A stretch of 35,726 nt of DNA from Atractiella rhizophila (taxonomy: Eukaryota): positions 62,001 to 97,726 of the forward strand of contig MU271310.1 in assembly GCA_021432655.1 (NCBI GenBank), in the 5' to 3' direction. Below the pieces are notes generated by a model. It made no database searches, had not been told where the DNA came from, and saw only the letters and a program-made list of their open reading frames with translations. The translations under genes were made by a program, and so were the position numbers. Shown one piece after another: positions 3,314 through 25,500 of this stretch. Position 1 is the first letter of the stretch. The number at the start of each line of letters is the position of its first letter.

Positions 3314-3338
3314 NNNNNNNNNNNNNNNNNNNNNNNNN
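3314..3338. other. Assembly gap (25 N)
   Basis: Run of 25 N. Confidence 1.
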
Positions 3339-3802
3339 GATGCCAGTATGAGATTCGGAACACCATACGATCGTAGAATGTTTTCGACGTCTAAGTCCGA
3401 TCCCCAACTCAGAGACCGCACTTGGACGCTCGAAGAGGATTCAAGATTCTTTCGAAGTAACGGAACCACCTCGTCCAAGTCCGTGGCTACGATCTGGTCT
3501 GCTTTGCCCTCCCCCAACAGCGGCATCAAAGACTTGGGAAGGTGTCCCGTCCCTGATCCAAGATCGATAATTGTTCTCTTCTCCTCCATGCCAGCCTTCT
3601 CACATTGGAGGATAGAAGCAGGATCGGGATCAAACTGCCACTCTTTCGAATCAAGCAGGTATTCCACCAGACAGGCAGAAGCAGGCCATGTGACGCCAGC
3701 GATGCCATATTCCGCATCGTCGAGATCAGGTGATGGAGAACAATGGAGCGATCGTGAGAGGTCCAAGTTGATCGGAAAATTTGCCTGCTCGTTCAGAGAC
3801 AT
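3339..3802 (-). CDS. Class I SAM-dependent protein-lysine methyltransferase, Methyltransf_16 (METTL21/Efm-like) family; 3' end lost in the gap
   Basis: ATG at 3802 (MSLNEQANFP). Family motifs GIAGVTWPAS, motif I IIDLGSGTG, IVATDLDEVVPLLRKNL, LSWG, then NLILA just before the expected DxxY motif, where the gap begins. Confidence 0.88.
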
Positions 3803-6008
3803 CGTCAAAGAATTGTTTGTGCGTATTTGTCCCTCCTTCCAACTGAACTGAAACAGATCAGATGAAAGAAAACGAAGAGAAGAAGAGATAACCGAGCAGA
3901 CGTACCTTGGCAGAGCATAGAAACTGGAAGAAAGACTGAAATAGAGATGCGCTTTCTAGAAGCGGTAGACGGCATGTGTGCAGCGTCAAGAGCGTATTAC
4001 CCCTTCTGGGTTCAACGAGCTCAGCACCCTGGTATAAATGTCTTAGCAGTAGAAGCTGACCAGTGAGTGAAGGAATAGTCCTCAATAAGTACTCAATTAA
4101 CGTGAACTTGTCATACATGCTCAATGAAGTGGAAAGCAGATTGGACGGATTCCTTGCCAGTGGCTGGGAATGAGGATTTTCCACGAATTTTGGCAGTGAG
4201 CCTATAGACTGGAAAGAACAATGGCAGCTTTTAGATAGCCGTTGCGACAACGAACTATTGACACGAGACCATCGACTGTCTGATCTTGGAACATTTGAAC
4301 TCCAGTGAAAACAAAACTAATCCGGATCTATAATGCACGTGCAATTGAAATTTGATTGTTGAATGCGTACGAACAAGTTATTGAAGCCGTTGTTCATGGG
4401 AGCTCATAAAAGTCCCAGATAACTTTTAGCACTGAGTCGACAGCCTCCAGAATCTCTCACAAATGGACTTTGCTACCGTCCACACGATCTGGGCTGGGTC
4501 CTGGATGGTGAACCTTTTCTACAACGGAGTTCGACACCACCTTAGTAAACTCTCTCAGACGTGGGATGGCTACTGGCATGTAAACTCAGACTGACTACAC
4601 TGTGAAGGGAAGGCTGATTTGCCAAGAAATAGGCAGCAAGATTTCGCTCATTCATTTGTTCGCCACAATGATAAAAGTGCCATCGTTTGGGGATTGCAAA
4701 CTACAAAACTCAAGGATGCCTAGACAGAGGAAAGGATGAGGAATACATCAGAGATGCGCAGAAGGCGATGGGGTGTAACATCGCATGTGGCGTTACAATG
4801 GTGATATAATGGTTTGCCTCTATGATCAATGGAACCTGCTCGTCTAGTATTGTCCATAGACCAAAGCTCGTGTCTCCCAACAGGCTGCAACGTTCTACGT
4901 TCAATCTGAGTCATATTATTTGCCTCCAACTTTTTGGACTTCCACACAACTGGTCTTCTTCTCCGATTATCAAAAAAACAAATTGAAGAGATAGAAAGTC
5001 ACCTCATTGTTTTAGTATTTTAAAGACTTGCTTGCTTTGAGGGTACACAGTCACAGGAATATGTAGAGAATCCATCTAAGTCACTAGCAAACATCAACAA
5101 GAGAATATGGAATGTCTAATTTACGGACATCAGCTGGCAACTTGGAGGATCTAGCTGAACGTCCTAGCAAGTTCATTCCATCCAAGATCATTACTCCCAT
5201 CATTCATGTTTCCTATGTTGGTCTTTATCTGCACAAAAGCAGGAACTTGCCAGAAAGCAATTTTTAAGGCATTTCATGCCACCCATGTCCTTAATAAAGC
5301 AGTTACAAACCGACGATAACCTCGTGGTTTTGCTACGTCCTCAGGCAAAGGGAGTTAAGACTTAAATATGTTGAGCCAGCACGAGCTTTGTGAAGCTAAT
5401 GCGATGGGCAATGGTCAGACAGCGCAGGATTCCCTCGAATGCGACCTGCTCTTTATTTGCCCCCTTATTTGCCCCCCTTGGCTACGGCATATTTATGCCA
5501 TAGCGCCTACGCACGAACACAGCGTTCAAGACCCATTCAAGCAGCAATGGTGCCTTGGACACCAGACTTCGCCAAGGCAGAAGTGTGACTGCAATGACAT
5601 CTATTGATGCTCCTGAGAGCAAGCTAGCCAACAGTTTCGAAAACGGGCCCCAATATCCTTCATAACTCGGAAGGAATGTCTCACACAATCAAAATGCTCA
5701 TCACACATTCACACCCACGCTCGCAAACAGCAAAACGACCCCAAACCCAGCTGTCAAGCTTGCAACAGCGGCGTATCCCATCTCGCTCACCGGGACAGAC
5801 GTCCGCGCTTTTGAGAGGCTGTCCATTCATCAACATAAAGTTAGCAAGCATGTATGATGACGTAGAGGGATGGGACAGACGTAGTAGAATAGAAGCCAAA
5901 ACCAAAAGCAAGAGCGAGGAGGATGGCGGAGAGGACTGGGAGGGTGGATTCCGCTACCGGAGGAGAGAACGAAGGTGCTTTGGGGAGGACTGACTGTCTC
6001 CGTCGTTG

Positions 6009-7267
6009 TCAGTGATATTCCTTAGGTGACAGATAGCGCAGAACAGGAGGCTCACGTTCTGGATGAAGATGGTACACTTGGCCGACCGAGATCCCTGCGG
6101 TCTTTGACTCCCACGTTCTAGTCGTCCCACCCAAGAGTTCTTCAGTGATGACGGTGCGTTTGGTGAAGCACCCTTCACAGCGAAAGGTGCTCCCATTCGA
6201 GGTGCCGAAATTGCAGACTTGTATAGGCAACCAGGTCCCTCTGTTCGGATCCGTAGTGGAGGCGACGGGGGTGGACACTTTAGCGATGCGAATGCGTCGG
6301 AGAGGCTCGAGACTGATTCCTACCTTGACGATGAGGATGGCGATTTGAAGGGCGAGCCAGGGATACGACCAAATATTCAATCCAAGAACGAGGATAGTGG
6401 AAAGACCGTCTATTGCGCCGCTGAGGAGGATACAGATGCCAGCGATGCGAATAGCCTTTCTGTCGTATTTTGCCTCGAACAGGTTGAATGTAGTCGCATA
6501 TTCGGTGTTGAAGCTCAAAGGCGTGCTCTTGACGTTATGTCCGAGCGTGACGACCTGAAGGTGTCGCCAGGCATCTCCTCTCCCGTTCAATTGGAGCGAC
6601 CGTAATCCCATACCCCTCGTGAAGTGCAAGATCGCGATGCCGGCGATCCAGAGAATCATCGCCAGACCCAAGGCGACGGCCAAAGCGACGTTAGTACCTT
6701 CGGCCGCGCAGAACAAAGAGATGACGACCTCGAGAGCATAAATCGGGAGAAAGATGAGGAAACCGCCCAAGGCACGTTGGGTATTTGTTTGCGAAAGCTC
6801 GACGACGTTCGGGAATTGCCCTTTTCCTTGGAAGCTGGCTTCGACGAGGTAATCCTCCGATGGGTTGTGGTTCACGTATTGACTCCCCGAATGACGCTCC
6901 GGAGTCGCAGAGGCTACGTGGGAGAAGACGGGCGAGTAACGATTGACATATTCGTCGTGGGCATATGTGAAATCCGCGACGATGTTGCGGTCTAGGGGCA
7001 GGATGAGTGTTGTCCTGATGTCCTCAGGTAGGGGACGGGAAGGTACTCACAGAGCTCAAGGTTACAGAGCATCACTCCGAGCTGGAGTTTGGCCAAACAC
7101 CTACCAGCTCCAACTCCTCCAAAGATAAGAGTGACTGGAAGAATGCGAGAAGCGACCATCTTGACGTTTTGGGTCTTGCCGGTCAAAATGGGAACGAGCG
7201 AAAGGAGGGAACTGATCCCATTGATATTCTTCAAAGCGGTTGCAAGAGAACGATCCGTGCCTGACAT
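6009..7267 (-). CDS. Uncharacterised 4-TM membrane protein, C-terminally truncated version (about 399 aa; exons 7267-7051 and 6991-6009)
   Basis: Probable ATG at 7267 (MSGTDRSLATALK). A GTGAGT..TAG intron at 7050-6992 joins in frame (LEL-Y-RNIV). Four hydrophobic segments. Diverges from copy 2 after LRYLSP and stops at KEYH*. Confidence 0.72.
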
Positions 7268-7970
7268 TTTTGTTGAAGCTTTTCTGGAAGGAAGGAACAT
7301 CGTATTCCGGCGCCTTTTATATGGTCGCATTTCAGCCTCGAGGCTGATACAAGGATGTTTCGGTCGTGAGCTGAACAAGACGCACGGAGTCATCTGCCGA
7401 ACTGGACGGGCTTCAATACGTTCGATATTCACGAACAAGAAATTGCTGATCCAAGACTTGCTTGGATGTGAGCTGAACAACACGGAGGAAGTCATCCTCC
7501 GTGTGCTCCCGTCGAACTGGACGAGTTCAATTCATTCACGACAAAAAACCAATTGAGAGCTATCATTTGTGTTCGTACGGCACACACGCAATTCAGAGGG
7601 ACGCCTTCCATCTTGTCCTCTCCAACCCTCTCCCTCTTCTCTGGGAGCGTATGCGACCGACTTGTTACGGCGGCAACGTAAATCCAGAATATTGAGGAAT
7701 GTTCTTGAAAGGGACGATGGTGGCGTCCTGGACGTGTTGGACGCGAACGTGATCACATTGAAGAAAATAAAAATGGGATTGGACTTAGAAGCGTGTTGTT
7801 GCTGTTGTTGCCGTTGGTGTGTTGTTAATCATATATGAGAGGCATCATATATATGGGAGGCATCATATATATGGGAGGCATCATATATATGGGAGGCATC
7901 ATATATATGAGAGGCATCATATATGAGAGGCATCAGACTATAGTTCTATATTCTGGCGGATAAAGATTAC
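6025..7970 (+). repeat. Segment C, copy 1 (direct copy at 15719-17590)
   Basis: Homology begins ggtgacagatagcgcag at 6025/15719 and ends ggcggataaagattac at 7970/17590. SNPs and small indels differ between the copies. Confidence 0.97.
7828..7935. repeat. 16-18 bp minisatellite, about 6 units (AGGCATCATATATATG[G/A]G)
   Basis: AGGCATCA recurs at about 7840, 7858, 7876, 7894, 7912 and 7928. The core CATATATATG is palindromic. The other copy has only 2 units (about 17519-17555). Confidence 0.95.
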
Positions 7971-8586
7971 ACCGCTAACTTGAACCCACTTCCTGGGGAG
8001 GTGGAGTTGACATGTTTTTAGCTGGTGGTTGACATTTGAAAGTGAATTGTCACCACGTTCCCACCAGGAGCGAACGCCGAATATGTATTTTGGTGACGAC
8101 GTCAACTCAAAATCATGTAATCTGCAATAACATTTTATGTCTCAGCCACTTGGAATACAAGTGTTCCCCGAAAGTCGGCAGCGTCAATGTACGAGGAGAA
8201 CCAAAAGCTTGATGCAAATGGCAGCTTGTACAGGGGTTCTATGCACCTGCCAGCTATGTGCTGGAGTCTGTCCCGCCATCACGATTCGGATTCCTCAGCT
8301 GCAGCTGTCCCACCCCTCTGCTTTCCTTGCTATTACAGAGGCACTTCCCGGAGTGAGAGTGTATGAATAGAATAGTCTAATTGCAGCAATATAGACGAAC
8401 AGTCGTAAAAAAGACTCTGACACGAAGTAGTGAACTGAACAGACTGGAACGAATTAGCGAAGATGAGGGAATGTGATAATAGTCCTTGTCATCGAATTCA
8501 GGGCATAGCCTGTGGAACGTGTTAGACAAATGTAATAAGAAACGCAGCTTAGAAAGATCACGGAAGCGTACCTGCAAGTTAACGCT

Positions 8587-9914
8587 CTAGAGACCAGCTG
8601 ATAAAGTCTCGACGTCACGCAAAGCATCTCGAGACTCTGGCTGAACGGGCCACTTTTGTATATCCCAAGTAAACCACTGGGTATAGAACCTACGGTAATA
8701 CTAAACTTAACAGGAGAACGATGGCAGATGCAAAGTAAACGAACTTATCTATTTCAGCCGCCCCTCCTTTTCGCACCTCATTCAACTTTGCGTCAATCTT
8801 GTTCCAAAAATCTTTCGAAGTGAAAGGGCCATGCTGTCGATCAAAGAAGGAGCGCTGGAAGGACCCATTAGCCTGTTTACAATTACTCTGCTATGGAACA
8901 CTCACAAGAAATGCGAGCCGTCTTTGAAGTTCTGCGCTTGGTCGAATGTTGAAGCCGCTAACAGCGGCCACCGTCAGTCTCACAATGTCCCATTCGTTCA
9001 GAATAGCTTTCTCAATCTGGAAACCATTAGAACATAGCATGCAGTACGATACGGAACGCTCACAAGGCCTTTAAGATTGGAGCGCTCCTGACCCGCTTCA
9101 TATTCGATTTCCTTCATCAACGTTGTCTTCATGACTGGGTCTAATGTCCATGCTGCTGCAAAAATGGTTGTTCCGGCATCTCGCTCAACCTTCTCAATGT
9201 ATTTCTATCGTGAAATCAGTGAATGAGCTCGGTGTGAAACAGAAGGCACTGACCCTGGCCCGATCCCCAAACTTCAATTTGTAAGCAAATAGATCATGAG
9301 CGCGAAGTAGCTCAGAGATGAGTTGGCGAAGATAATCCTGCAGACAAGTGTTAGGCAATGGTACTTAGCAAGATACACACACACCTTCATCTCTTTACTA
9401 ACCGTCCACTGTTGAACGAGGGCATGACGATGCTGTCTCACTTCACAAATAATAACGAGGAGATCTGCCTTGAGCTCCACCTTCTGTAATGCTTCGTGCG
9501 CATATCCGTTATACAAGAAGACGGTGACACACTGTATCTTCATTCAGATCACAGAAAGGGACTTACGGCGCCAAACTGGAGCAAATTAGGAAGATCTAGG
9601 GCCTCTAACGCAGGGCGGGCAGCAATGAGGCCTTCTACTGCAGTGCGAAATTCTTGGAAGCTCAACTCCCTGCTGGTCATGGTCGTGGTCGCCTCTTGAA
9701 CTTGTTGTCTTGGCAGCCGATGTCTCAGCGCTTCCTCACCTGAGTTAGCCACATCACGGTGATTCTGTCGCTGTTGTGCAAATGGATCTCGGGCCTCATC
9801 GTTTGATCCTGGCGTAGATGTCATCCCGTGATTATGAGTGCCGCTGTCTGGCTGGTAAGGACTCCCGAAGCGTGATCGATTGACTGTGTCGATAGTTGCA
9901 AGGAAATCTGACAT
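8587..9914 (-). CDS. Spliced transposon accessory gene, function unknown
   Basis: ATG at 9914 (MSDFLATIDTVNRSRFGSP). Several GT..AG introns. A late exon reads SKDFWNKIDAKLNEVRKGG (about 8760-8820) and the last exon FYTQWFTWDIQKWP...LSAGL* ends at 8587. Internal exon boundaries were not all resolved. Confidence 0.62.
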
Positions 9915-10647
9915 TGTAGCCAAAATACAGCTTCCCTAGCCCTGACAATTGAGCATTGAATCCAAAGGCACAAAAAAGAGTGTACTCACAGAATGATATC
10001 AAAGAGCAAGTGAGCAGGTTCCACTGGATTGATTTTTTTTGAGCAGAAAAACTTGAACGGTCTTTTATACCTGAAGGAGGACTCGCTGATCCGTGGGGTC
10101 GCCCACATATTGACCTGGCGAAACACTGTGAGAGAGGGTGACGGGATCAACTGGGGGAAATGAGGTTTGTGAGGAGACCATCAGTGTTGTGTTGTTTCGA
10201 ACTTGGTGAAAATTTTCAAACATGACACCCTGAGGGTTTCCTCAACGTGTTTCTGTTCACGTGAAGGAATCTCTTGACATCGATGTTGTTGGATAATGAA
10301 ATGATATATGTTGTGCCATTGTGATATTAACATGGGCCTATTGCTAGGTGAGAGCGCATGCACTGTTGAGAAATATTTGTTTTATTGTGTTTCTGCCTGG
10401 TCGCTTCCTGGCCCTTATCGTCCGCAATCAGACGGAACCTGAGTGTCCCTTATGATGAAACAGGGGACTTGGTCAACAGCTTCAGCTAAGATGTATAGCT
10501 CTGTGGGCTGGTGGTGGATCCAAATATTTGGTGGACTGTTCAGAATGCACAGAGCCAGCGTGTATTGTGCAGAGTGCAGCGTTATATCAGCCTGCAATTG
10601 AGGTCAAACACATTTTGCGGTGAGGGTTACATTCAAAGTGAAAAAGG

Positions 10648-11553
10648 ATGGCTGGTATTAGCACAGACTTCTGCCTCCTCCCAGATGGTCGATTTGGATG
10701 TCAGTTCTGCCCAGAAGTCATATTCTCCAAACCCTCTGATACTATCCGACACGAGAAGCGCTTGGCTCATCAAGAAAGAAAGGCAACTATCAACATGTCG
10801 GTTGAGGAGGAGTCTACTTTTCAGCTCGACGCATATGCTGCAGAGTATCAAAATAATCGGTTCAGGACTCCTGTTGGGCCAACGTACGAGCAGGGAGGAG
10901 ATGCTCTGCCGGATTTTTTCCTTCAGAAGTCTTCTTTTGTCCAGGGTGTGGTGGAGGATGTCATCAGAGAGTGTCATCCGATGCAGATTGAAGATGAGGA
11001 CGTCGAAGAAACCGAACAGCTTAAGCTGGCGCACGAAGAATATTCTAGAGCAAGATATATCTTAGACAACTCAGATGAAGAGTTTGAGTTGGGGGACTTT
11101 AAGGGAGAAGAGGAGCTTGATTTGACATCAGAAGTGGACGAGGAAGGTACATGTTTCCTCATTTATTTTACCCACCTAAGTGATTCCTTTGAAGATGTTC
11201 TGCCAGAACGAGGCAGACTGCAGGTTCCAGTCTCTGAGGAGTCTGATGGCTGGTTTCCTTACAAGAATAAACAGGTATGTTCTAATGCTGTTGTATTCAG
11301 TATTCTAATCAGATCTTATACAGCATGCCCTGTGTGATCTCCTCCTCAACCTTTTACGGCACAAGATTCCAGAATCCCTTCGCAAACTCCTTTGGAAGTT
11401 GATACCGGAACTTGGGCCTGAGAAATCCCTGTTTAAAGCTGAACTACCATCAAAGGAACGGATGAAAGCATTTGCGGAGGAGATGAGAGAGGTTGGAGTA
11501 GGCGCTCGTACTCATGAGTATCATGGCCATCGGGGGAACTTGGTGTATGTGAA
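10648..11553 (+). CDS. Transposase, 5' part (C2H2-type zinc finger plus acidic region), interrupted at 11553
   Basis: MAGIST...CQFC-x12-HEKRLAH, a D/E-rich tract, WFPYKNK, introns near 11148 and 11275, then ...GHRGNLVYV. It continues in frame at 17761 as N-DLNTMIAE. Confidence 0.8.
11477..11553 (+). repeat. 77-bp exact direct repeat, left copy
   Basis: gaggagatgagagagg...ggtgtatgtgaa is identical to 17684-17760. The pair brackets the 11554-17683 block. Confidence 0.97.
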
Positions 11554-11554
11554 A

Positions 11555-13424
11555 GGTGATAAAGAACCAGAAGAAGGCAAAAAAGTGAAGGTGTGGCGCA
11601 TTCTTGGTTTTTGTTGCTTTTTTCTTTGATTCGCTTTGTTGCGTACGACTGGTGTTCTTCGAGCTTCCCTTATGAATCAGTTAATCACTGAGTCTGTATC
11701 TGTTTACCTCGCGTTCAGTTGGTTATCCCCATTTCATGTTCAGTATTCAGTATCCAGTTAGCAGTATTTGAGCAACCTTCTGTTTGTTGATCATCCATTA
11801 TTCCTGTAGAAAAATATAGATTTATGCACACCATGTTACCTATCATGCGTTTCAAAGAGAACTGTGAAGCCTCTGCTACTGTGGTTCCTGTCATTAAGTA
11901 CAGCAGAGGACCAAGTGAGGATTTGGGAGTTGTGGACCCTAGTGTCGGTGATCCTTGGAAGCCAAATCAGTTGAGGACTACGCTTACTCCGTCTTACTCA
12001 GTTGTTGAGGCTGCTCGCGCTTGTTAAGGAGCAAAAACTAGACTACCATTCCTTTTTCTAGGACGTATCATTTCTCTAACTATCACAGGACTCCACTTGT
12101 TGAAAATGAAAATCAGCAGAATTCCCTCAGTTGCAGAGAAAGCTAACGTACCAACTTAAACTAGCTTTTTTGCCTGCTCTTCCGTTCTAATCACACCTCT
12201 GCTGTAAAAGCTCTCGTTATACTCTTCAAATCCTTTAGAAAATTTATTGCATCAAGCCCTAGACAAATTGCTCTTCTTCTGTTGGCGTATCTTCGAAAAA
12301 GCTTTTACTGGCGAGACTTTTTTGACAATTCGCAGCCCGAACCAATCATTTTTGGCGTCTCCCACTTCCGCGGCGTTGTCAAGCCCATGGCACCTTCCCA
12401 AGAGGGCTTAACCACCTTCTCGCCGCGAAATCAATGACTATAACGGTAGCCAACGACCCATCGTCATCAAAATCATGCATAACACTGATCGGAGAAAGAT
12501 CCTTGTGCACGAGGCCTAGAAGATGAAGGTGTTTGACCCCTTTGCGAATTTTATCCACCACGAAAGTGGAATCCAGCGTCATGCTTCGCCAACAGCGTCA
12601 CGGAGAGTTATCTAATGTTTCTCGAAGCAAAGACCAGTCGCAAATATTCCGACGGTTGCGTAGCCATAATATCGACAAATGTTTGGGTTGGAATAAGGGA
12701 GATAATATCCATTTCTTGGGTGTACAGGTCTCTGGTCTGACACGCACCTGGTGGGCCGGATGGGAACTCTGTGAAAATACATTCCTAGGGCGAAGAAAGT
12801 CTGGAAGGTCCTCTGTGGGAGCGCAAGTTCGGTTATCGGAATCAACCGATTTCGAGAAAAAAATTGATAAATTCCTGTTTCCGTTGGGTGGATTTGCTTC
12901 CTTACGTATTCCACCTGCTCATGCTGCTTTTCTGTTGAATATTCTGTTTGATTGGTATTTTGCCAGTTTTGCAATCTCAGTACCAAAGGGGAGAGGGAGA
13001 GTGGGATTGAAGGGCCGAGTGCAGCCTATATACTAGCGGTCGCAATACAGACTCGTCACATTCTAGAACTCGAGCCTAGCAATGCTGGAGTAAACTCGTC
13101 AGCGCTGCCATCTTGGTTGAGTGATATAATGGCTTATTTCTGCCTTTTACGCCTATAGATCCTCATACATGTCAAAGCAGATGTGTAGCTTGACAATGCT
13201 CATGCTCAGCTTATGCGCTTACGCATACCGTTAAGTTGCTTCCAAAGCTACCTCTGACTGCGAGTTCGCGTCAGAGGACCTGAGCCTTCTCACTGCTCGC
13301 CTCAACTGGTGTGATTTGGCTATTATCAATGTATGGCATTTGAGTCGGACCAGTGACAAAGAACCAAATCCAGGACCAACAGACCACGAGAAAGAAATGA
13401 GCCGGAAGGACAAGGATTCAAGCT
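11555..13424 (+). repeat. Segment A, copy 2
   Basis: Collinear near-identical copy of 1451-3313. Confidence 0.97.
12302..12912 (-). pseudogene. Second copy of the kinase-like pseudogene; boundaries approximate
   Basis: ORF 12379-12582 is identical to 2267-2470. The GLCFEKH* stop is shared. Confidence 0.85.
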
Positions 13425-13493
13425 TTCAAGAGGGAGCAAGGGATCGCAGTTGAATTGCACTGAAGTAAGACTCATGAAATACATATGTTTGAT

Positions 13494-13694
13494 GACGGGG
13501 AATCTCGGAGACCTATTTTGCGCTAACCTATGCTCTTTGTTACAGAATGTAGTTGGGGTAACGGGAGATGTTGGGTAGCGGACGGCGTCGTTGAGGTCGG
13601 TGAGGACGGGTAGGTAGGTGAAGCGTGAGGGTCGACGTGTAGGGACCAGTTCTGCAACAACGTCGATGAGGACCCGGAAGCTCACACGAATCAT
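13494..13694 (+). repeat. About 200-bp direct repeat, copy 1
   Basis: gacggggaatctcggagacc...ctcacacgaatcat. The only difference I saw from 14875-15074 is one T in a T run. Confidence 0.95.
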
Positions 13695-14788
13695 TACAGG
13701 TCCTTGTACCTCAACACTTACCTTAGTGCGGGTGAAACGTCATTCGGTAGAGAAGAAACGAAACCTCACCGCCCTTGCTTACCTTTACTTTGCAAACGAG
13801 GAAACAACACTACATTTCTTTATAGCAGCGGTGGCAATTGGAGCTAACAGCAGAACTAGAGTTTTGATAGCGAGAAGTGCGAGCTTTACGTCTCATATTG
13901 GGTTTCCAATCATAACTAGTCAAAGCAACTAACATGCCTCAGTTTAAGAGTGCGGCGGGATAAGCCACAGTATCGCAAAACGTCGGCAATAATACGCATA
14001 AGCTCTCGGGTTTTGGTGACGCGACTAGAAACGCTCGCCTTTCTACCACTATTGTCCGCGCTTCTCGCTTCTACTGTCAGCTAACCGCCCCTCCTTCATG
14101 CCAGCCTAATAGGTCTTCAACCCCAAACTCCGCTTCAAAAACCTAAAGTTCTAGGTCTTATAGCACCCTTCGACACTACACTTCAAACGGTAAGCTGACC
14201 TCCCTAACCGTATAAGCGTGCCTGTAAAGTCGAGCATGCTTGGACTCCATGCAGAAAGACTCAGCAGTGCCTACTTGTTCTTCCTATTACAATACCACTA
14301 CCTAGCACTTCGACAAGGGACCTGACTAGATAGCTTACCAGTTTGGATTTCAGCAGGACGAGTAGAAGCATAGGCCGTTCTAGCAGGAGTGTCCTCGCTT
14401 TCAAGCGCTCCTCTAGATAGTCCGAAAGGCGAGATAGACAAGCAGAGGGAAAGGCGGGAGGGGAGGGAATGGGATCCTAGACGTCTCGAAACATGACTGA
14501 CGAACGTCTGGGACATGACAGCCTCAAATCCTTCTCGCCTACTAGGGCACCGGCAAACTGTGACGAGTGAAGGAACAGGCTGAGAAAGAACTAAGCGCAG
14601 CAAAAATAAACATGTACGGAAATAGTCAACTCTGTGGTTGGACGGTTGTACGGTGAATTAAACAGAAAAGCGGTAGTGTAGGGAGCGCAACGGTAAATAT
14701 GCACATCTTCGTTACCTCTCCCTAGCGTCCAAGCTAAAAGAGTCCTAGCTTATGAAAGAAAGCTTGGTTTTTTTTTAGCCTGCTTGGA

Positions 14789-14813
14789 NNNNNNNNNNNN
14801 NNNNNNNNNNNNN
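14789..14813. other. Assembly gap (25 N)
   Basis: Run of 25 N. Confidence 1.
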
Positions 14814-14874
14814 GTACGTAGTTGAATGATGGGCGGTGGTGTTTTGCTGCTTTGCTAAGAAGGCCGTAGGAGTC

Positions 14875-15074
14875 GACGGGGAATCTCGGAGACCTATTTG
14901 CGCTAACCTATGCTCTTTGTTACAGAATGTAGTTGGGGTAACGGGAGATGTTGGGTAGCGGACGGCGTCGTTGAGGTCGGTGAGGACGGGTAGGTAGGTG
15001 AAGCGTGAGGGTCGACGTGTAGGGACCAGTTCTGCAACAACGTCGATGAGGACCCGGAAGCTCACACGAATCAT
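14875..15074 (+). repeat. About 200-bp direct repeat, copy 2
   Basis: Matches 13494-13694. Confidence 0.95.
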
Positions 15075-15450
15075 ATGATGAGTGTCCACATCAATGTCAG
15101 TGGCGACGTTCGGACGAAGAAAGCTCAGAACGAGTTGAAATGAAAAGACGAATGCTGGACAAATGGTGCTGGACGAGTATGTAACTAGACGGGTGTGTGG
15201 TCATGCTTCCTCGCTTCAGACTTGCAACTTCTTTTCCTCTGGTTCTCCACGGCTGAGTGTTGAGCGCCGAGCTTTGAGCAGCCTTGAACGATGCACTTGA
15301 ACTTGAACTCGATTCTAGCCTTTACAATTTATTGAGAAAGTGTCGCTTTCTCCTTGCTTCATACAATACAAGCTTGCGACTTTAAACCTGATCTGTGGAG
15401 AGAAATCTACTGTATACTGTAACGAAACGCTGAAAATCAAAGCCAAAGTG

Positions 15451-16960
15451 CTAAGCTCTCTCGTTCCAAGACACAACTTTCTGTGCCCGTTTCAAACGCT
15501 CCATCAAGTCCTTCGCGCCAACCTTGAACCATTTCTCGTCCATCGTTCCCTCCATTCCCTTCATCAAGCTCCTCACAGCATTTATGAAATCTTGACTGGG
15601 CACCTTATTCGCTCCCACTATATCTCCCAAACAAGCCAGAAACTCTCTCTCGAGCGCCGCATTCGATTGAATCTTCGGCTTGGTGTCGGTGAGGACGAGA
15701 CTGGCCCCATCGGCTGATGGTGACAGATAGCGCAGAACAGGAGGCTCACGTTCTGGATGAAGATGGTACACTTGGCCGACCGAGATCCCTGCGGTCTTTG
15801 ACTCCCACGTTCTCGTCGTCCCACCCAAGAGTTCTTCAGTGATGACGGTGCGTTTGGTGAAGCACCCTTCACAGCTAAAAGTGCTCCCATTCAGTGTGCC
15901 GAAATTGCAGACTTGAATAGGCAACCAGGTCCCCCTGTTCGGATCCGTCGTCACCTCGACGACGGTGGACACTTTGGCGATGCGAATGCGTCGGAGAGGC
16001 TCGAGACTGATTCCCACCTTGACGATGAGGATGGCGATTTGAAGGGCGAGCCAGGGATACGACCAAATATTCAATCCAAGAACGAGGATAGTGGAAAGAC
16101 CGTCTATTGCGCCGCTGAGGAGGATACAGATGCCAGCGATGCGAATAGCCTTTCTGTCGTATTTTGCCTCGAACAGGTTGAATGTAGTCGCATATTCGGT
16201 GTTGAAGCTCAAAGGCGTGCTCTTGACGTTATGTCCGAGCGTGACGACCTGAAGGTGTCGCCAGGCATCTCCTCTCCCGTTCAATTGGAGCGACCGTAAT
16301 CCCATACCCCTCGTGAAGTGCAAGATCGCGATGCCGGCGATCCAGAGAATCATCGCCAGACCCAAGGCGACGGCCAAAGCGACGTTAGTACCTTCGGCCG
16401 CGCAGAACAAAGAGATGACGACCTCAAGAGCATAAATCGGGAGAAAGATGAGGAAACCCCCCAAGGCACGTTGGGTATTTGTTTGCGAAAGCTCGACGAC
16501 GTTCGGGAATTGCCCTTTTCCTTGGAAGCTGGCTTCGACGAGGTAATCCTCCGATGGGTTGTGGTTCACGTATTGACTCCCCGAATGACGCTCCGGAGTC
16601 GCAGAGGCTACGTGAGAGAAGACGGGCGAGTAACGATTGACGTATTCGTCGTGGGCATATGTGAAATCCGCGACGATGTTGCGGTCTAGGACAGGATGAG
16701 TGTTGTCCTGATGTCCTCAGGTAGGGGACGGGAAGGTACTCACAGAGCTCAAGGTTACAGAGCATCACTCCGAGCTGGAGTTTGGCCAAACACCTACCAG
16801 CTCCGACTCCTCCGAAGATGAGAGTCACTGGAAGAATGCGAGAAGCGACCATCTTGACGTTTTGGGTCTTGCCGGTCAAAATGGGGACGAGCGAAAGGAG
16901 GGAACTGATCCCATTGATATTCTTCAAAGCGGTTGCAAGAGAACGATCCGTGCCTGACAT
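15451..16960 (-). CDS. Uncharacterised 4-TM membrane protein, long version (about 483 aa; exons 16960-16744 and 16685-15451)
   Basis: Same gene as 6009-7267 with the intron at 16743-16686, but it continues LRYLSPSADGAS...KVVSWNERA*. Confidence 0.78.
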
Positions 16961-17590
16961 TTTTGTTGAAGCTCTTCTGGAAGGAAGGAACATCGTATTC
17001 CAGCGCCTTTTATATGTTCGCATTTCAGCCTCGAGGCTGATACAACGATGTTTCGGTCGTGAGCAGAACAAGACGCACGGAGTCATCTGCCGAACTGGAC
17101 GGGCTTCAATACGTTCGATATTCACGAACAAGAAAATTGCTGATCCAAAGACTTGGTTGGATGTGCGCTGGACAACACGGAGGAAGTCATCCTCCGTCTG
17201 CTCCCGTCAAACTGGACAAGTTCAATTCATTCACGACAAAAAACCAATTGAGAGCTATCATTTGTGTTCGTACGGCACACACGCAATTCAGAGGGACGCC
17301 TTCCATCTTGTCCTCTCCAACCCTCTCCCTCTCTGGGAGCGTATGCGACCGACTTGTTACGGCGGCGACGTAAATCCATAATATTGGGGAATGTTCTCGA
17401 AAGGGACGATGGTGGCGTCCTGGACGTGTTGGACGCGAACGTGATCACATTGAAGAAAATAAAAATGGGATTGGACTTAGAAGCGTGTTGTTGCTGTTGT
17501 TGCCGTTGGTGTGTTGTTAATCATATATGAGAGGCATCATATATGATAGGCATCAGACTATAGTTCTATATTCTGGCGGATAAAGATTAC
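15719..17590 (+). repeat. Segment C, copy 2
   Basis: Collinear with 6025-7970, with a shorter minisatellite. Confidence 0.97.
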
Positions 17591-17683
17591 GTAGAAAGGA
17601 TGAAGACAGAACGAGAAGCAATAGCCTTGTGATTGAAGAAGCAAGGGCGGTGTGGAACGGAAAGGGTAAAGAAATGGTCACCA
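17588..17683 (+). repeat. 96-bp exact copy of 21912-22007 (right flank of the transposon)
   Basis: tacgtagaaaggatgaagacag...gaaatggtcacca is identical at both sites. Confidence 0.97.
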
Positions 17684-17760
17684 GAGGAGATGAGAGAGGT
17701 TGGAGTAGGCGCTCGTACTCATGAGTATCATGGCCATCGGGGGAACTTGGTGTATGTGAA
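17684..17760 (+). repeat. 77-bp exact direct repeat, right copy
   Basis: Identical to 11477-11553. Confidence 0.97.
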
Positions 17761-20700
17761 TGACCTGAACACCATGATTGCCGAGGTGTGTGATCATTTA
17801 TTCACACATGTGCTTGACTGATCGCCGGAGGGATGAATAGTTTATTGCCAATCCTCTGATTCGAAAGCATCTAACCTTTCTTCCTGAAGACACTGGTAAC
17901 ATGATCCAAGAGCTTTATCAAGGTGAAAAGTGGAAGAATGAAGTAAATGCGCGTCTCCTTACACCTTCCATTGTAGTTGGTGGTCAACAATACTTTGTGG
18001 ATGAAGTCATTCAACTAAACGGTGGTCAATACTGCTTCGTGTCACGGTGGTTCACAAAAGGAGGTACTGTGCATTGCAGCGGATATGAAGTGCACTGGAG
18101 CAAAGAATTTGCCGGTTTTATTATCGATCAGAGGCAGGGAATGACAGTTCCTGTCAGTGCCTTCGAACGGAACGGACCGGCCTTGCAGGCCAACGCACCG
18201 AGTGCCTATGTAATTAAAGGTGAGCAATCTGTTACTTCGACAACTATCTCTCAAATTGATGCTGCTTACAGCAATGATTGATTCTGAAGGAATCCTTACA
18301 CACCGACTCGAAGAATGCCGACCGATATCAAGTCTCCGAGAATCTTGTAAAGGCCATCGTGTTGTGACTGTCCCTATCGTGCTGTATGCTGATGATACAT
18401 CGGGGAACCGCTCGAAGAAATGGAACAAACATCAGACATTCCTCATGACATTAGCAGGTCTGTATCTCGTTAGCTTCCTTACAAGTATTGACAATGAATA
18501 AGGATTGCCCAATAAAATGCAACAGCAAGAGTTTTGCATACAGTTCCTTGGAACCACAAATGTCGGCTCTGTACTCGAGTTGCTGGAAGGTATTGTCGCC
18601 CAGATTCTGTAAGCATTGACTTCAGCAAGTGAGCTCAGCCGGTGATATTGGACTGAGTGCTACAGTGATGCATGGGAGGAACCTGTAGTCGCATTCGACT
18701 CTCTCACAGGTGAAGAAATCGTTTTTCGGCCGCTTCCACTCCTGTTTGAGGGTGACAATCCTATGCAATCTGAATTTTGCTCGATTGCAGGACTGGCTTC
18801 CCTGAAATTCTGTCGAGTCTGCAAAGTCGGGGCTGCTTCTAAGGTAGAAGAGGAAACTGAAGAACACATTCACAGATTCATGACGGTTCGGTGACACTTT
18901 ACTTTTTAGTATATCCCTGCTGAGTGGATCTTTCTATAGTGCGGTACTCCACGACTCCCATTTGAAACGCTTGCTTCACTCCAGAAATCTCTCGCCACTG
19001 CTGCCGATCCAACACTTCCTAAGAATCAAGTTGACCAAGAACAAACAGCCACTGGAGTCAAGGATACCTTTACGGCGTTTTTTATTGATCAGCTTCTTCA
19101 ACTCCGCAAAGACTTTCAGGGATCCAATCAAGAACTCGAGGTAGAAATTCGCAAAGTTCTGGACACATGGGAAAACCAACGCTTCAAGCACAACCCCGCT
19201 TTTCAACTGTTAGGTCTCGACTTCGATTTCCATCATGATACTCCGTTCGAAATTCTACATGGGATTCTTCTTGGGTTCACTAAGTATTTATGGCGTGATA
19301 ATATGAAGCGACTCTCTGTGGTCCAGAGAGCTGTTGTCATTCGACGTTTGAATTCACTTGAAGTTTCTGGTCTGCAAACTTCTCGAATTTCTGGATCACA
19401 ACTTGTCGATTATGCGCATAGTCTTGTCGGCAAAGATTTCAAGATCATCATGCAGATTGTGCTTTTTGCGCTTGACGGTATTTTGAGCGACAGTTTTCTG
19501 TTAATCTGGGTTGCCCTTGGTCGGCTTGGGTCTCTGGTATGGCGTCCTAAGGTGACAGATAAGGCTAAGTATTTGGTTTGTATTTTTGCGCCCTTGCTCT
19601 TACAAATGGCAAGTAACATTGACATGATCAAATTAGTACAATCTAGAGGCCGCAATTGCTTTCTTCCTAGATTCGACAGCCTCATTAACAACACAATGGT
19701 TCAACAAACGGAAGTTCCACCTCCTTGTCCACCTCGTAGACAACGTCCGCCGGTTTGGCGTCCCTATCAACTATGCTACGGAAAAGTTTGAAAGTTACAA
19801 TGGTGTCGTTCGCCTTCGCTCTGTCTTCTCCAATCATCAAGCTCCTGGAGTCGACATCGCCACCTCATTTGCAGGCTACGATCGAGTGCGTCACATCTTC
19901 AGTGGTGGGTTCTGGAAGGACAAAGCCACTAGTCAATGGGTTTGCGCTTCGTCAAAAGTTATTGCCCTTATGCGCGATGAATCCTATCGCCAAATGTTGG
20001 GACTTACGCTCCCTGATCCGTGGTCACAGTCTGCCGCTGGCAAACCTCCAGGTACGTATTTCAGAAAACGATTTTCCATGAGTAAACAGGTTATTGATCG
20101 CGAGCAGGAAGTTGGGAGCTCGAAAGTAGGAGTAACTTGCACATATCAGCAGCCGACACCATCCTTCACAAACTGCGGCCCTCACTTCACCTCTCCTCTG
20201 ATGGTCAAAACTTCCTGGAATACAAGCATCTCCGAGTGCGTTCAGTTACCACCGCATCCGATGAGGAGGCACGGACAGGCACATTTGTTCTTGTAGAGGA
20301 GAAGGAACAGGTGTGTCTCTTCACAATATTGGTGTGTTGCTCATGGTTCTGTTTCCAGCCCCCATATATCTTTCAAATTAACCAAATTCTCCTTGTCCAA
20401 CCAGTGGACCGATCTCTTGGTGTGAATACGCAGGAACTTCATGTATATGGCCGCCAGCTCGCTTTCACAGGAACGTGGTATAAGGGCTTTCAGCTACCTC
20501 TCTTATTGCCCTCTGCGCACTTGTCTAAGCTGGGCTCAGCTGTAAGTTGCTACTCTTTCAGAAGAGCACTCTATATTCATTCCATCGAAAGGATTCACTG
20601 AAAGCTGTTGTCAATGTCCAACACGCTTGTCAAATTGCAGGCTGCATTGATGACGGGTTTGAGATGGTTCGTCAGGAACGAAAGATGACTGAGCAACGGC

Positions 20701-20858
20701 GACCTGCAATTCGCCACAGAACAGAGCCCACGAATAAGCACTTTTACCTTCTGAATACCCACAGCCTTCGAAATAGTTCTCTCCTCCAACAATTTCTCCC
20801 ACCTATCCCTCAACTCGATCGGAGAGCTCTTGTCTGCGAAGGTATCAGGAAGCACTGA
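17761..20858 (+). CDS. Transposase, catalytic 3' part (multi-exon, CACTA/EnSpm TnpD-like DDE)
   Basis: Exons read ANPLIRKHLTFLPED..QGEKW, PIVLYADDTSGNRSKKWNKH (D near 18391), FEGDNPMQSE..FCRVC (D near 18754), HDTPFEILHGILLGFTKY, LVGKDFKIIMQ, KFHLLVHL..RFG..ATEKFESYNG (E near 19781-19792) and VNVQHAC. The D/D/E order with the HxxxH..G..E end is the pattern of CMC-superfamily transposases. Family assigned by motif recognition, not by search. Confidence 0.82.
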
Positions 20859-22571
20859 GAATCAAAAGCCGTTCAAACAAAAGTCAAAGAAACCCTGGCT
20901 CACCCATCCGTTGCCCTCCTTGCTTTGCCTTGTTTCCAACCTGGCTTCAATATCCACAGCTTATCGGACGAAGGGCTGCGTGTTTTGATTGGGCAACTTG
21001 GAGGGAAAGTGCGCGCCAATGTCAAGATGCGGGTGTGCTTTTTCCCCCTGATATTTCCACTGCTGATGTGAAAATAGGGCACACTTCTTATGATTGCTGA
21101 ATGGACTATGGGAGCTGTTCTTAATGCTCTTGGGACTGCAGATGAAGTCCAGCATCTACCTCAGTATTAAATCTGCAGCTGGCGCAATTGATCAGATCAG
21201 AAATATTGTAACAAACTGTATTGCAATCAGTCCTTTTTACCTTCTTTGCACCTGAGCTTTCGCTCTCTGTTTCTCCGCATTGGCCCAAACCTATAAGAAT
21301 ACATCATACTCCTCATACGACATCTCAGCTATCAATTTTGGCGGCTCGTATCCTCGCTGTCAGAAAACGGCGCGCTCATAAAACAAATTCCAATAAGGAG
21401 GAAAGAGCTGACCTTGTTGACGGCAACGAGACCGTCTGGGCGATTCCCAACGTCCTGCCAATGCATTGGCCGACGATGCCGCTATGGTTGCTTGAGACGA
21501 GACTGTGGTTTGTGGTGACATTAATCAGAAACAGGATCGGAGTGAAGTCAAAGGTGGACAAAGTGGAGGAGTCGGAGGGAAGGGAAGGGAGGTCAAGAAG
21601 CGTTGAAGTGCGGCAGAGGAACATAGGCATCAAATATCTGCTCATACTGCACTTCGGAGAGGCGTGCAAAGATTGCAATCTAAATGGGGGTGGTTCAATA
21701 CTGCTTTTTTGATACATCTTTGGTGACTCACTACTTCGCCGAACTTCGGCAATCTGAGTATCCAAACTGTGCTGAGGAGGCAGCAATTTTCTGATTTCAG
21801 CTTGAACACACAAGTTCTTGTTGCCATCAACAGGTTGCGGGGTGAGCCACGGATTAACTTTTTAGTTTCAGGTTTCAGACTTAGAATCCTGGTGTTCCCA
21901 CTTTTGGCGTGTACGTAGAAAGGATGAAGACAGAACGAGAAGCAATAGCCTTGTGATTGAAGAAGCAAGGGCGGTGTGGAACGGAAAGGGTAAAGAAATG
22001 GTCACCAAAGATCCCCTTGTATTGTAATATCTTGGAATATAATCAACAACGTGAGGGATTGCTCAGAGGCGATGGCTGGAAGTGGGTTCCTTGAGCGATT
22101 AGGTAAGCAGCCATGACAAGTGAAGTGGTGCAAATGGCTGAGGTGTGACTTGGGGGAAAACCTTGAAATAGCAGCTAGAGGGGAAAAGTAAAGCATGATA
22201 CACTGATTGAGCATCTTCATCGGTTCGAGCGAGCGCCGTGCAATCATCATGAACTTCATGTTGAAATTCGTCCTGGTGAGAATCGTTCTGTACTGTATGC
22301 CTTGATAGATTACGTCCGTCGTCAACAATCGTGCTTTGGACTCACTTCAAACCATAACTCTTTCGGTACTACTCGTCAGACTGCTTGTCAGAGCACCTTC
22401 GTTCTTCTTCCTGATCGGCCCGGAACATTGCGACAAAACGGAGTTATGGTGCTGACATGAGCCCATTGCGCCGTCTAGCTTCGTATATCAAGACATGTCT
22501 CTTTCCTTGTCCATCTCCCACGCTCTCTGGTTCTCTGGTCCACGATAAAGTGTAAACGACAGCGAAGAAAA

Positions 22572-25500
22572 ATGAGCTCCAAAGAAGACGTCGACCTCAA
22601 AATCATCGAGCTCGACTCTCCCACTCCTCCCACCGTTAGGAAGCGCAAACTATACTGGCCCTTCTCCTACTATCCACCACCTCCCTCTCCCCCTCCATCC
22701 TCATCCTCATCCGCATCTACTCCTCTCCCTCCATCCCCAGAAGCGACCGCGCAGCTCCTCTCCCGTATTACGTGGTCATGGCTCACGCCCCTCCTCTCGC
22801 TCGGATACCAGCGTCCTCTCCACACCTCCGACCTCTTCATCCTCCCTCCTACCATCTCATGCACGCATCTCAGTCGGAAATTGAGCGAGGCTTTTGAGAG
22901 GCGACAGTTGGATGCGGCTGCTTGGAACGAGCGGTTGGAGGAGGGGAAGTTGCAGAGGTGGGAGAGGCTGACGAGAAGGACGCAGCTGTTTTTGTTGCCT
23001 TTTTTGAGAGTCAAAGGTGAAGCAGGAAAGGGAGAGAGGAGTTTGAAGAAGGAACCACTCCTTGTGATGGCGATGAATGACGCGATTGGCAGAGAGTTTT
23101 GGATCGGAGGAGCAATGAGGGCGGTGAGCGATGTGATACAAGTTTCTACGCCGCTCATCAGTAAAGAGATCATCCTGTTCGTCTCCCTCTTCACTTCATA
23201 GCAACTGCAATTAAATGACTTTTTTAAACGACGAACGATGGATAATGCAGATTCGCACAACGCACCCACGCCGCACGCACGTCATCCTCTCCCACTCCTA
23301 CCCAACAACCATCGATCGGAAAAGGGCTCAGCTACTGTTTCGCTCTCCTCGCCCTCCAACTCCTCGCCTCCCAATGCTCCCAACAGGGTACCATGATCGT
23401 CCAACGCGCAACGATAGGAGCGAGGGGAGCGATCGTGGCGTCAGTCTTTGAGCGGAGCGTGGAGCGGATGGACGCGAAGGATATGGATAAGGGGAGACTG
23501 ATGAACCATATTGGGGTGGATGTTGGGATGGTTGATGGAGCCATGGGATTCTTTCACATCGTCTGTATCCTTTACCTCCTATATTTCACTTACAGTTAGT
23601 CAACTGATTCCGATATCCTTTTGCCCTGCAACACACAGGCTTGGACGGTTGGTTTCACTTTATTTCTGAGTCGTAATTTGAATTCTGAAGGGAATCTCAG
23701 TCCGTGATTCAATTTATCATCATCCTCGCTTTCCTCCTTCACTCCCTCGGTCCCTCCGCCCTCGCTGGCGTGGGGTTCGTCATCCTCTCGAGCCCTCTCC
23801 AAGGGATGATAATGGGCAAGATGGCCAAGATGCGGAAGGGAGTAATGGAAGTCACCGATCGCAGGTCGAGATTGACCAGGGAGGTAGGTGCTTTCGCAAT
23901 GTCGGCGCCGCTGCTTGTTCCACTGACCATGTCTCGTTGTTGTGCAGGTGATGAATGGGATCAAGCTCGTGAAATTGTTTGGTCTGTCCTTCTCCTGTTC
24001 TCTTCGGAGTTGATCTCAATGGTGCTCGTATGCAGCCTGGGAGAGACCTTTCGTGAAGAAAATGGAAGGAGTGAGGAGAGAAGAGTTACAGGAGCTAAAG
24101 AAACTCCTCACCTTCCGAGCGATCACAATGGCCGTCTACTTTGGTCTCCCCTCCCTATCCGCGTATGCCATCCACCGCCTCCCTCTCTCTTTCAGTTAAT
24201 ATCATCACTTGACATTTCACTAACGCGAAAGGAGGGCACAGCGTGATATCAATCATCGTCTACTCCTCCATCCACTCGGCCAGAACCCTCGATCCAGCAA
24301 TCATCTTCCCATCCCTCTCTTGGTTCTTCCTCCTCCGAATCCCACTTACTTACCTCCCCCTCTCCCTTTCCTTTTCCGTCGACGGCTGGAACGCTATTCG
24401 TCGACTCCAAAAGCTGTTTGTCCTCACGACAGGTAAAGAGAAGGGAGAGGGTCAGCTGGGGCTGCTGGCCGACGAGGATCCAGGGCTTGCCATTGAGATT
24501 GAGGGGGGAAGGTTCACATGGGATGCGGATGCGGATGCGGATTCAGATGGAAGCAGGAAGGAGTTGAAGGACATTTGTTTGAGAATCGCGAGAGGGAAGT
24601 TGGTCGCCATTGGTGTGTCCATTCCCCATTTTTTACCGAGAACGACACATTGATAGTTTAACGATGTGGACAGTGGGACCCGTGGGGAGCGGGAAGAGTT
24701 CACTCCTCGCTGCGTTGACTGGAGAAATGAAGAAGTTGGAGGGGAAAGTGAAACTGGGTCTATTCTTCCCTCTACTCTACCTCGACCTCGTCTGATGGGT
24801 GGATGAGGTAGGAGCGGAAATCGCATACGTTCCTCAGATAGCCTGGATTCAGAATGCTTCTCTCCGGTTCGCTTCCCATCGTCCCATATCTCATTTCAAG
24901 GTGGACTTGGATTGATCTCATTCCCGGACGGATTGCAGGGATAACGTGCTGTTTGGCCAGCCGTTTGAGGAAGAGAGGTACTGGAGCGTCATCCGTTCGT
25001 CCTGTTTCCTTCCCGTTCAAAAAAGCCAGCGCCTGATCAGATTGATCGCCAGGGGCTGCGTGCCTTGAGCCCGACCTCGAAGTTCTACCCGACGGAGACT
25101 TGACTGATATCGGTTCGCCCTCGTCTTCTCCTTTATTACAACCTCAGAACCTCACTTTGAATCGGGTTGGATACAGGCGAAAAGGGAATCAATCTTAGGT
25201 ATATTTCGCTACTGGTTGAAAAGTGCTCGTGGCGCTAATGTCGACGGTCCGTTTGTTGAGAGTAGCGGTGGCCAGCGTCAACGGTATGTTCTGTTCTACC
25301 TGTGACACGAAAGCGATGTTGATGTTTCGCAGGGTGAGCATCGCCCGTGCTATGTATTTTCAGCGAGCTGGTTTAGTCTTGCTGGACGATCCATTGTCGT
25401 AAGTTGTTCTTTCTAGAGCAGCTTCCAGCCCTGACACCCTGACGTGCAGTGCTGTCGACGCGCATGTCGCTGAAAGCCTGTTCAACCATGCCATCAAAAG

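Follow-up and report, generated by a model that had tools for sequence, protein, structure and literature searches.

A probable ESTA-type CMCT transposon with TA target sites in Atractiella rhizophila, its transposase gene very likely split by an assembly artefact

Plant EnSpm/CACTA transposons carry a CACTA/CACTG motif at both ends within a terminal inverted repeat (TIR), Transib elements have clear, long TIRs and a 5-bp target site duplication (TSD), and the RAG1/Transib reaction proceeds through end pairing, a nick beside the CAC, hairpins on the flanks and strand transfer. In the portions of Kojima 2025 (PMC12730594) consulted here, ESTA is a lineage apart from fungal EnSpm and Plavaka, with TA TSDs, CA..TG termini, transposases that are RAG1-like by HHpred, and C(2)C and H(3-4)H motifs; the TSDs of fungal EnSpm measure 3 bp and the ends are CAC..GTG. 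The ESTA entries in those portions start with CAC, those not named -N measure 6.6-14.3 kb, most families are without TET, and nearly all come from rusts, ESTA-1_AB (CACGCC) belonging to Agaricus bisporus by its suffix. According to part of a second source (PMC5751038), Transib is missing from fungi and CMC elements are expanded in Agaricomycetes and Pucciniomycotina. The present analysis concerns a stretch of 35,726 nucleotides from the root fungus Atractiella rhizophila (assembly GCA_021432655.1, contig MU271310.1, positions 62,001 to 97,726; hereafter the window), in which a prediction made from the letters alone had placed a CACTA-like transposon at 7968-21913. As a whole, the locus is best explained, with good confidence, by a two-gene, cut-and-paste element of 7.7 kb from the CMCT clade, most likely of the ESTA lineage, inserted at a TA on one haplotype and by a block of host DNA misplaced into its transposase gene during assembly.

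In window coordinates the element runs from the first C at 7970 to the last G at 21911 (CAC...GTG), with aaagatTA leading into CACCGCTAAC on the left and TTTTGGCGTG leading into TAcgtag on the right. The original prediction had read these two junctions and that of an empty site in the same window correctly to the letter, and its CAC...GTG ends with almost no TIR are borne out by other copies that end at the same positions. The features of the ends are as follows.

7968-7969, + strand: TA, left TSD copy (TA precedes 5 of 5 family left ends)
7970-8092, + strand: left end, CAC terminus and conserved subterminal region (same start base and 70-81% identity in three other copies)
7987-8004, + strand: conserved left block, CACKTYCTGGGGANGTGG (imperfect inverted repeat as judged by eye)
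21881-21911, + strand: right end TTRGAAW...TTTGGCRTG, terminal GTG (pattern matches and alignment of family copies)
21912-21913, + strand: TA, right TSD copy (TA follows 8 of 9 family right ends)
17582-17599, + strand: empty site aaagatTAcgtagaaagg, with a single TA at 17588-17589

Patterns for the right and left ends matched the genome 11 and 8 times, respectively, and both control patterns 0 times. Before counting, two right-end and three left-end matches were set aside, leaving nine right and five left ends: the right-end matches on contigs C212 and C963 are one shared locus with no family similarity and AC following, the left-end matches on C150 and C575 have no CAC at the expected place, and the match on C1382 reads CA followed by CACGCAC, where similarity stops. 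The right end on C128 was counted though similarity covers only its last 25-31 bases. Flanks are all different among the nine right ends and among the five left ends, and the further copies share the CAC/GTG ends and the duplication as proposed, with TA following eight of the nine right ends and CAC standing directly after TA at every left end. The right termini are GTG (seven of nine) or ATG (two), and the letters after them read TAA twice, TAG three times and TAC three times (window site, C635 and C1095). Because the right ends continue TAA and TAG as well as TAC, the TSD is TA; a 3-bp TAC duplication, once held to fit equally well, is contradicted by five of the eight TA-flanked right ends. 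The exception on C67, where GTG is followed by GTA rather than TA, speaks against a fixed TA. Both ends could be assigned in four copies, three of which have TA on both sides.

Window copy: 7,735 bp, TA/TA
C70 copy: 8,149 bp, TA/TA
C306 copy: 2,663 bp, TA/TA, no transposase match found in its stretch
C67 copy: 7,798 bp, TA/GTA

Perfect terminal matches in these copies extend over 3, 3, 3 and 9 bp, and 9-13 of the first 20 bases agree; in the window element, whose ends had been said to match poorly beyond CAC, the agreement is three terminal bases and 11 of 20. C70 and C270 carry right ends that agree at 98% over 600 bases and stand in different flanks, and thus this subfamily moved recently. 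No ends were found for the copies on C3 (gaps on both sides), C58 (truncated), C248, C271, C247, C1163 and C204 or for a second C70 copy. The C58 copy (C58:79370-83512) is 96% identical, lacks both ends and has internal deletions (window 9739-10236 and 19159-21415); low-depth spliced contigs of the C58 type occur in one public read run (X3). The family is dispersed over unrelated TA sites with fixed CAC ends and retains the catalytic residues described below, and a real DNA transposon of the CMCT clade with a TA TSD is almost certainly present.

A sister family with a transposase (P0238) 40% identical to the Atractiella rhizophila protein P0001 repeats this anatomy. Its two 7.0-kb copies (C2:202845-209824 and C510:7084-91), 97.6% alike, both run from TA and CACGGCAG to GCCGTG and TA, with TA/TA in 2 of 2, a 7-bp terminal match, and right-end continuations of TAA and TAG. 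Two more left ends of the sister family stand after TA at C109:29804 and C38 about 40224. On C109 (from 36750), sequence resembling 18S ribosomal DNA by eye stands behind the sister copy, beyond a 435-N gap.

In the alignment of copies, the conserved subterminal block differs between the ends, with one block per end. The left block, CACKTYCTGGGGANGTGG, is matched exactly at five places in the genome, each of them a left end of the family (control pattern 0), and its conservation would make it a candidate protein-binding site. The four 8-mers earlier reported near both ends do lie at 8057, 21894, 8062 and 21887, but their meaning as subterminal motifs was rejected, as they are not kept in other family copies and two shared 8-mers arise between two 150-bp window stretches in 20% of 5,000 random pairs, a chance frequency of 0.20.

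The element was initially sized at 13.9 kb, a span that includes a 6.1-kb block foreign to it; without the block the true length is 7,735 bp. The parts of the block are as follows.

11554-17683, 6,130 bp: block of host locus splitting a transposase exon (self-comparison, reads and C215)
11477-11553 and 17684-17760, + strand: 77-bp duplication, 100% identical
11555-13493, + strand: second version of window 1451-3313 (98%), then 69 bp as in C215
13494-14788: TBP locus C215:65128-66419, backwards and uncomplemented (99.0% over 1,295 bases; no read cover)
14789-14813: 25-N gap
14814-15074: second backwards, uncomplemented piece, C215:65068-65327 (99.6% over 261 bases)
15075-17686, + strand: host region without the element (97% to window 6025-7865 and 94% to C215)

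When the window is compared with itself, 11555-13424 repeats 1451-3313 (98%), 15719-17555 repeats 6025-7865 (97%), 17523-17590 repeats 7903-7970, and 17588-17686 repeats 21912-22010; the block is therefore a second, element-free version of the host locus inside a transposase exon. The window's host sequence has a collinear counterpart in contig C215 (90-99%), which is element-free and carries the TBP gene (Pfam PF00352, E 1.4e-28). DNA that is reversed without being complemented is made by no cell, replication or repair process, and since the block holds TBP DNA in this state, it is very likely an artefact of assembly. Three public runs were compared, as contigs, with 7880-22300, and all figures refer to the contigs and joints listed; run X3 is spliced like RNA. 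Depth is zero at bins 13652-14613 in all three runs. Contigs of X1 and X2 join 11476 to 17684 at depths of 135.7 and 98.5; the joint leaves out 6,207 bases, the 77 shared letters all fit, and the contigs contain the 77-bp stretch once. The C58 copy differs inside the 77 bp and yields a separate joint (11474 to 17682), so that the joint from 11476 to 17684 is the window's version. Contig loose ends at 11555 and 13493 continue into native sequence in all three runs, the C58 transposase copy is uninterrupted at the block position, and the public model P0001 begins inside the duplicated 77 bp. The arrangement with the block inside the transposase is absent from any real chromosome, and gap filling would have inserted the element-free haplotype there.

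The empty site does not belong to a paralogous locus beside the element; it lies inside this misassembled block within the transposase exon. The flanks of the filled form depart from those of the empty form at 1 of 67 and 1 of 99 bases. The locus exists in three versions, about equally distant from each other (window 6025-7969, window 15075-17686 and C215:62518-65067); in 1.9 kb, 20 substitutions are private to the filled version, 22 to the block and 21 to C215, a pattern that suggests either a segmental duplication or more than two haplotypes. Contigs of X1 and X2 start at 7941, 30 bases ahead of the first base that differs between the filled and empty forms, as expected of a graph branch between the two, and two versions stand at equal depth at 17147 (151.4 of 302.6; 98.7 of 196.9). 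We consider it fairly likely that the empty site is the true pre-insertion allele; the block is probably another haplotype, and the insertion is therefore probably heterozygous. C215 (about 62587) keeps the target TA and lacks the next 28 bases of the right flank, possibly an imprecise-excision footprint or an old indel. The proposed polymorphism is probable between haplotypes; no contig among those listed covers the empty junction, and a real empty allele is supported indirectly. That the insertion is recent, as first proposed, is loosely supported by the near-identical filled and empty flanks; the closest other copy found is 96% identical and truncated. A short tandem array with a 16-bp ATCATATATATGGGAGGC-like unit lies immediately left of the insertion site (7843-7935), and its copy number varies among the three locus versions.

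Several observations weigh against this account of the locus. X1 and X2 come from a single sample, possibly the source of the assembly itself, and three locus versions exceed the two of a simple dikaryon; a literature search for the host's nuclear state found nothing useful. Among the contigs listed, none crosses either the empty or the right junction, and the contig at the left junction holds only 29 flank bases and was not counted as bridging. Were the block a real nested insertion, a template switch would have copied an element-free homologue, duplicated the 77 bp and killed the element. This would accord with block junctions that have no N and with true substitutions in the block relative to the other two versions, and a chimeric contig could exist beyond those listed. 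It is nevertheless highly improbable given the DNA reversed without complementing, the lack of read cover over that part, contigs of the window's version that run straight through 11555 and through the 77 bp, and the same type of reversal on C67. The empty site could also be the product of precise excision or an assembler chimera, in line with the unspanned junction, the proven software errors in the surrounding block and a different junction in C215, the only clean homologue, with its TA and 28-bp-shorter flank. The block's 22 private substitutions in 1.9 kb point instead to an old separate haplotype and not a sister molecule, and the contig start at 7941 and the equal depths at 17147 fit an allelic pair, so that excision or chimera is improbable and a true pre-insertion allele is preferred.

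Backwards, uncomplemented gap fills occur at least twice in this assembly, at the TBP locus and on C67, where 3.3 kb of a transposase copy (about 44561-47858) match C3 at 99.5% only when reversed. From the 25-N gaps, the gap-filling software was presumably of the PBJelly type; no paper documenting backwards gap fills was found in the literature search. A reading of the 201-bp direct repeat (13494-13694 / 14875-15074) as a pair of long terminal repeats was rejected, the repeat being the overlap of two backwards gap fills. Window 3339-6023 is a second copy (97%) of C131:59070-61723, itself just upstream of the window, and looks like another misplaced fill; C215 carries this segment once, before window position 1. 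Misplaced and backwards fills of this kind are a warning: they split gene models, break the TBP locus and give rise to false paralogues and false 201-bp repeats.

The transposase gene is predicted at 10648-20858 with 12 exons and 11 GT-AG introns, its frame open over 1,142-1,143 amino acids without the block; three of six splice paths stop early, at about 1,075 amino acids. Its features are as follows.

10648-11553, + strand: transposase 5' part (predicted exons 10648-11146, 11195-11274 and 11324-11553)
10699-10770, + strand: C-x2-C...H-x5-H motif, zinc-finger reading by eye
17761-20858, + strand: transposase 3' part, mostly covered by public model P0001
17889-18300, + strand: first BAH-like beta-barrel, predicted, approximate (P0002 residues about 46-184, Z 7.3-8.5)
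18385-18408, + strand: YADDTSGN (first D)
18745-18768, + strand: FEGDNPMQ (second D)
18808-18825, + strand: FCRVCK
19243-19263, + strand: PFEILHG
19712-19732, + strand: KFHLLVH
19775-19801, + strand: ATEKFESYN (E)
20105-20790, + strand: C-terminal BAH-like domain, predicted, approximate (conserved H-x-C-x4-C...H; NVQHAC at 20613-20630)

Relatives number 2,834 at E<=0.001, and the 521 representatives at E<=1e-30 imply hundreds of clusters across the basidiomycetes; the named homologues are basidiomycetes (Agaricomycetes, Phenoliferia and Atractiella), including one in Agaricus bisporus. Among 85 aligned homologues, the putative catalytic and zinc-binding positions are nearly invariant (D201 in 85, D288 in 84, C307 in 81, C310 in 80, H571 in 83, H575 in 81 and E595 in 83), and the window copy retains all D-D-E, CxxC and HxxxH residues; the choice of D201 over D200 and E595 over E592 is our assumption after the RAG1 motifs. 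The window copy is, judged by its sequence, potentially intact and autonomous. Run X3 has no cover over 19424-20385, which was not taken as evidence of silence.

A DDE fold, which the original prediction had left to be checked, was found by modelling, though the folds were computed on P0002 and P0238 and not on the window's own protein, which tempers the case. P0002, the transposase of the C70 copy, is 81% identical to the window's, and its model (predicted local distance difference test score, pLDDT, 91) has RAG1 as best structural match (Foldseek E 3.1e-9; Z 17.9, root-mean-square deviation (rmsd) 4.3 over 413 residues), followed by BbRAG1L (Z 15.9), HzTransib (14.4) and the P element (11.7); no EnSpm structure was among the fold matches, and fold rank does not measure kinship. 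By sequence, a profile search of the PDB gave nothing meaningful, and Pfam found no transposase family in 25 window open reading frames (ORFs) and one weak Transposase_21 match in 30 further proteins. The proposed comparison with known profiles thus gave Transposase_21 below threshold only (P0004, E 1.5e-4 and 21.4 bits against a cut-off of 28.6; P0018, E 0.005), with no match for the window ORFs or P0001; DUF4218 matches were also sub-threshold (E 0.04-0.14), and PF18759 (Plavaka) matched none of the proteins scanned. A literature search for DDTSGN found no paper. Thus a large, unannotated 'DDTSGN' family of mushrooms and their kin appears to be a RAG1-like transposase missed by Pfam and by TIR-based tools.

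The predicted models also contain two BAH-like regions, one on either side of the core. In P0002, residues about 46-184 match BAH domains with Z up to 8.5 (rmsd 2.6, 96 residues), and in the full-length P0238 model (pLDDT 82) residues 797-981 match DNMT1 BAH1 (Z 10.0, rmsd 2.8, 106 residues); these scores are middling and come from predicted whole-protein models. The C-terminal region is covered by 85 of 88 aligned proteins. In the window's own C-terminal part, BAH clusters score a template modelling (TM) value of 0.52-0.59, under the Atlas naming bar, and a Plavaka cluster scores TM 0.67, a resemblance which suggests that this domain may be common to the clade. Conserved aromatic columns, as column counts only, are several in the first BAH-like domain and few in the second, and Pfam BAH (PF01426) has no match. 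The literature search, which excluded subscription papers, did not link BAH to these transposases, although Iyer et al. 2014 and Yuan and Wessler 2011 may mention it; the two predicted BAH-like domains were thus not found in print. A doubtful but testable extension is that ESTA-type transposases are RAG1-like proteins with two BAH folds flanking the core, at least one of which would read a histone mark and steer TA insertion by chromatin state, with the second gene aiding the pairing of near-unrelated ends or shielding from silencing. Should this hold, the transposase would itself, as a single chain, fill the role that the RAG2 PHD finger has for RAG1. The predicted domains are the best lead of this analysis, a testable one on chromatin-guided targeting.

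The second gene, ORF2, points away from the transposase.

8590-9914, - strand: ORF2, public model P0154, 347 amino acids (spliced transcript from 8360 to beyond 9990)

Its contig in run X3 (depth 57.6) has eight joints, seven with GT-AG ends, and differs from the window in three listed letters; it may derive from another copy or be a mosaic. ORF2 homologues occur in six other copies (C70, C306, C81, C3, C67 and C58); two further homologues lie at C12:79378-79648 and C12:142736-143357. ORF2 gave no match to the sister copies and no Pfam family, and its Atlas neighbours are unnamed basidiomycete proteins (0.96), with DUF6532 and DUF6698 only at 0.87, a lead. An ORF2-like part is fused in P0055 alone among 256 proteins. 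Because ORF2 is kept in the 2.7-kb C306 copy, in which no transposase match was found, it is probably an accessory factor.

By its features, the element likely belongs to ESTA. It shares with ESTA the TA TSD (8 of 9 right, 5 of 5 left and 3 of 4 two-ended sites; 2 of 2 in the sister family) and RAG1 similarity by structure (through the 81%-identical P0002), and with ESTA and CMCT at large the CA..TG termini (CAC at all 5 left ends; among the 9 right ends, GTG at 7 and ATG at 2) and a D-D-E whose C(2)C and H(3-4)H follow the second D and precede the E. No TET/JBP gene was seen in the window element, ORF2 having no Pfam match. It differs in its host, Atractiella being a word absent from the main text of PMC12730594, and in its BAH-like domains, unmentioned in that main text. 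Plavaka is likewise a fungal CMCT lineage with 2-3 bp TSDs and a similar C-terminal domain (the cluster at TM 0.67); its termini differ (PlavakaA TGT..ACA, PlavakaB CATCA..TGATG), as does its profile, PF18759 being unmatched here. Transib, RAG1 and ProtoRAG provide the closest solved folds, at 9-16% identity, together with a CAC terminus and a zinc-binding insertion, and Transib differs by a 5-bp TSD and long clear TIRs that the window family lacks.

Two findings tell against ESTA membership: DDTSGN does not occur in the portion of the ESTA supplement examined (sequences to 400 letters), and no rust is among the best 120 homologues, while most ESTA families come from rusts. They would suit a CMCT lineage of its own, as yet without a name, that came to TA specificity independently of ESTA, for the same element and the same artefact, as would the named homologues in Agaricomycetes, Phenoliferia and Atractiella, and starts of CACCGC, CACTGC and CACGCC where most ESTA starts in the part examined are CACCAC. 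However, all testable ESTA features are found here, ESTA starts in that part include CACCGC, CACGGC and CACGCC, and ESTA-1_AB places the lineage in Agaricus, where a homologue occurs; the homologue profile was built mainly from Agaricomycete proteins and covers only the best 120 relatives. A separate lineage is accordingly unlikely, and ESTA is preferred. A canonical EnSpm/CACTA with a TAC duplication would share the CAC ends, the D-D-E with C(2)C and H(3-4)H, two genes and weak Transposase_21/DUF4218 similarity below cut-off, and TAC fits the window site, C635 and C1095. It is scarcely tenable, as five of eight TA-flanked right ends continue TAA or TAG, the sister family continues TAA and TAG, CAC follows TA at all five left ends without a CACTA pentamer, and fungal EnSpm, with 3-bp TSDs, is a lineage distinct from ESTA in the part of PMC12730594 examined. 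Beyond the fixed 2-bp TA in place of a 3-bp TSD, the window family has no CACTA/CACTG at both ends (left ends CACCG, CACTG in one copy, and CACGC; right ends CACGC/CATGC), a terminal match of 3-9 bp, genes that point apart, and, for subterminal repeats, only two 8-mers common to both ends, at the chance level of 0.20 and not kept in copies. Thus the CACTA-related placement holds at the level of the CMC/CMCT clade (CAC ends, TA TSD, DDE fold) and not for canonical CACTA. The gain is modest, a further family for a lineage that received its name in 2025; the range of ESTA-like elements now includes Atractiella, for which ends, TSDs, the layout with two genes and a potentially intact, autonomous copy are described.

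By analogy with the RAG1/Transib fold, the transposase would pair both ends, nick beside the terminal CAC, probably leave hairpins on the donor flanks, and carry out strand transfer at TA with a 2-nt stagger. Because the ends share little beyond CAC, recognition probably relies at each end on the conserved block particular to that end, an asymmetry suggested by the anatomy. The insertion itself would have taken place on one haplotype of this basidiomycete, at a TA that lies between two host genes.

Immediately right of the element lies a multi-exon ABC transporter gene (about 22570-28430, + strand; ABC_membrane E 1.4e-16), which we take from its motifs to be of the ABCC/MRP type. A host gene without a Pfam family appears twice, as a 421-amino-acid frame in the block (15451-16716, - strand), probably the whole gene, and as a 345-amino-acid frame (6009-7046, - strand), probably cut short by the misplaced segment. 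A Methyltransf_16 ORF (3218-3955, - strand) reads through a 25-N gap into unrelated DNA. A protein-kinase-like ORF lies at 33008-33661 (Pkinase E 8.9e-7, under cut-off), and 66%-identical inverted partial copies of it occur at 2224-2575 and 12336-12686.

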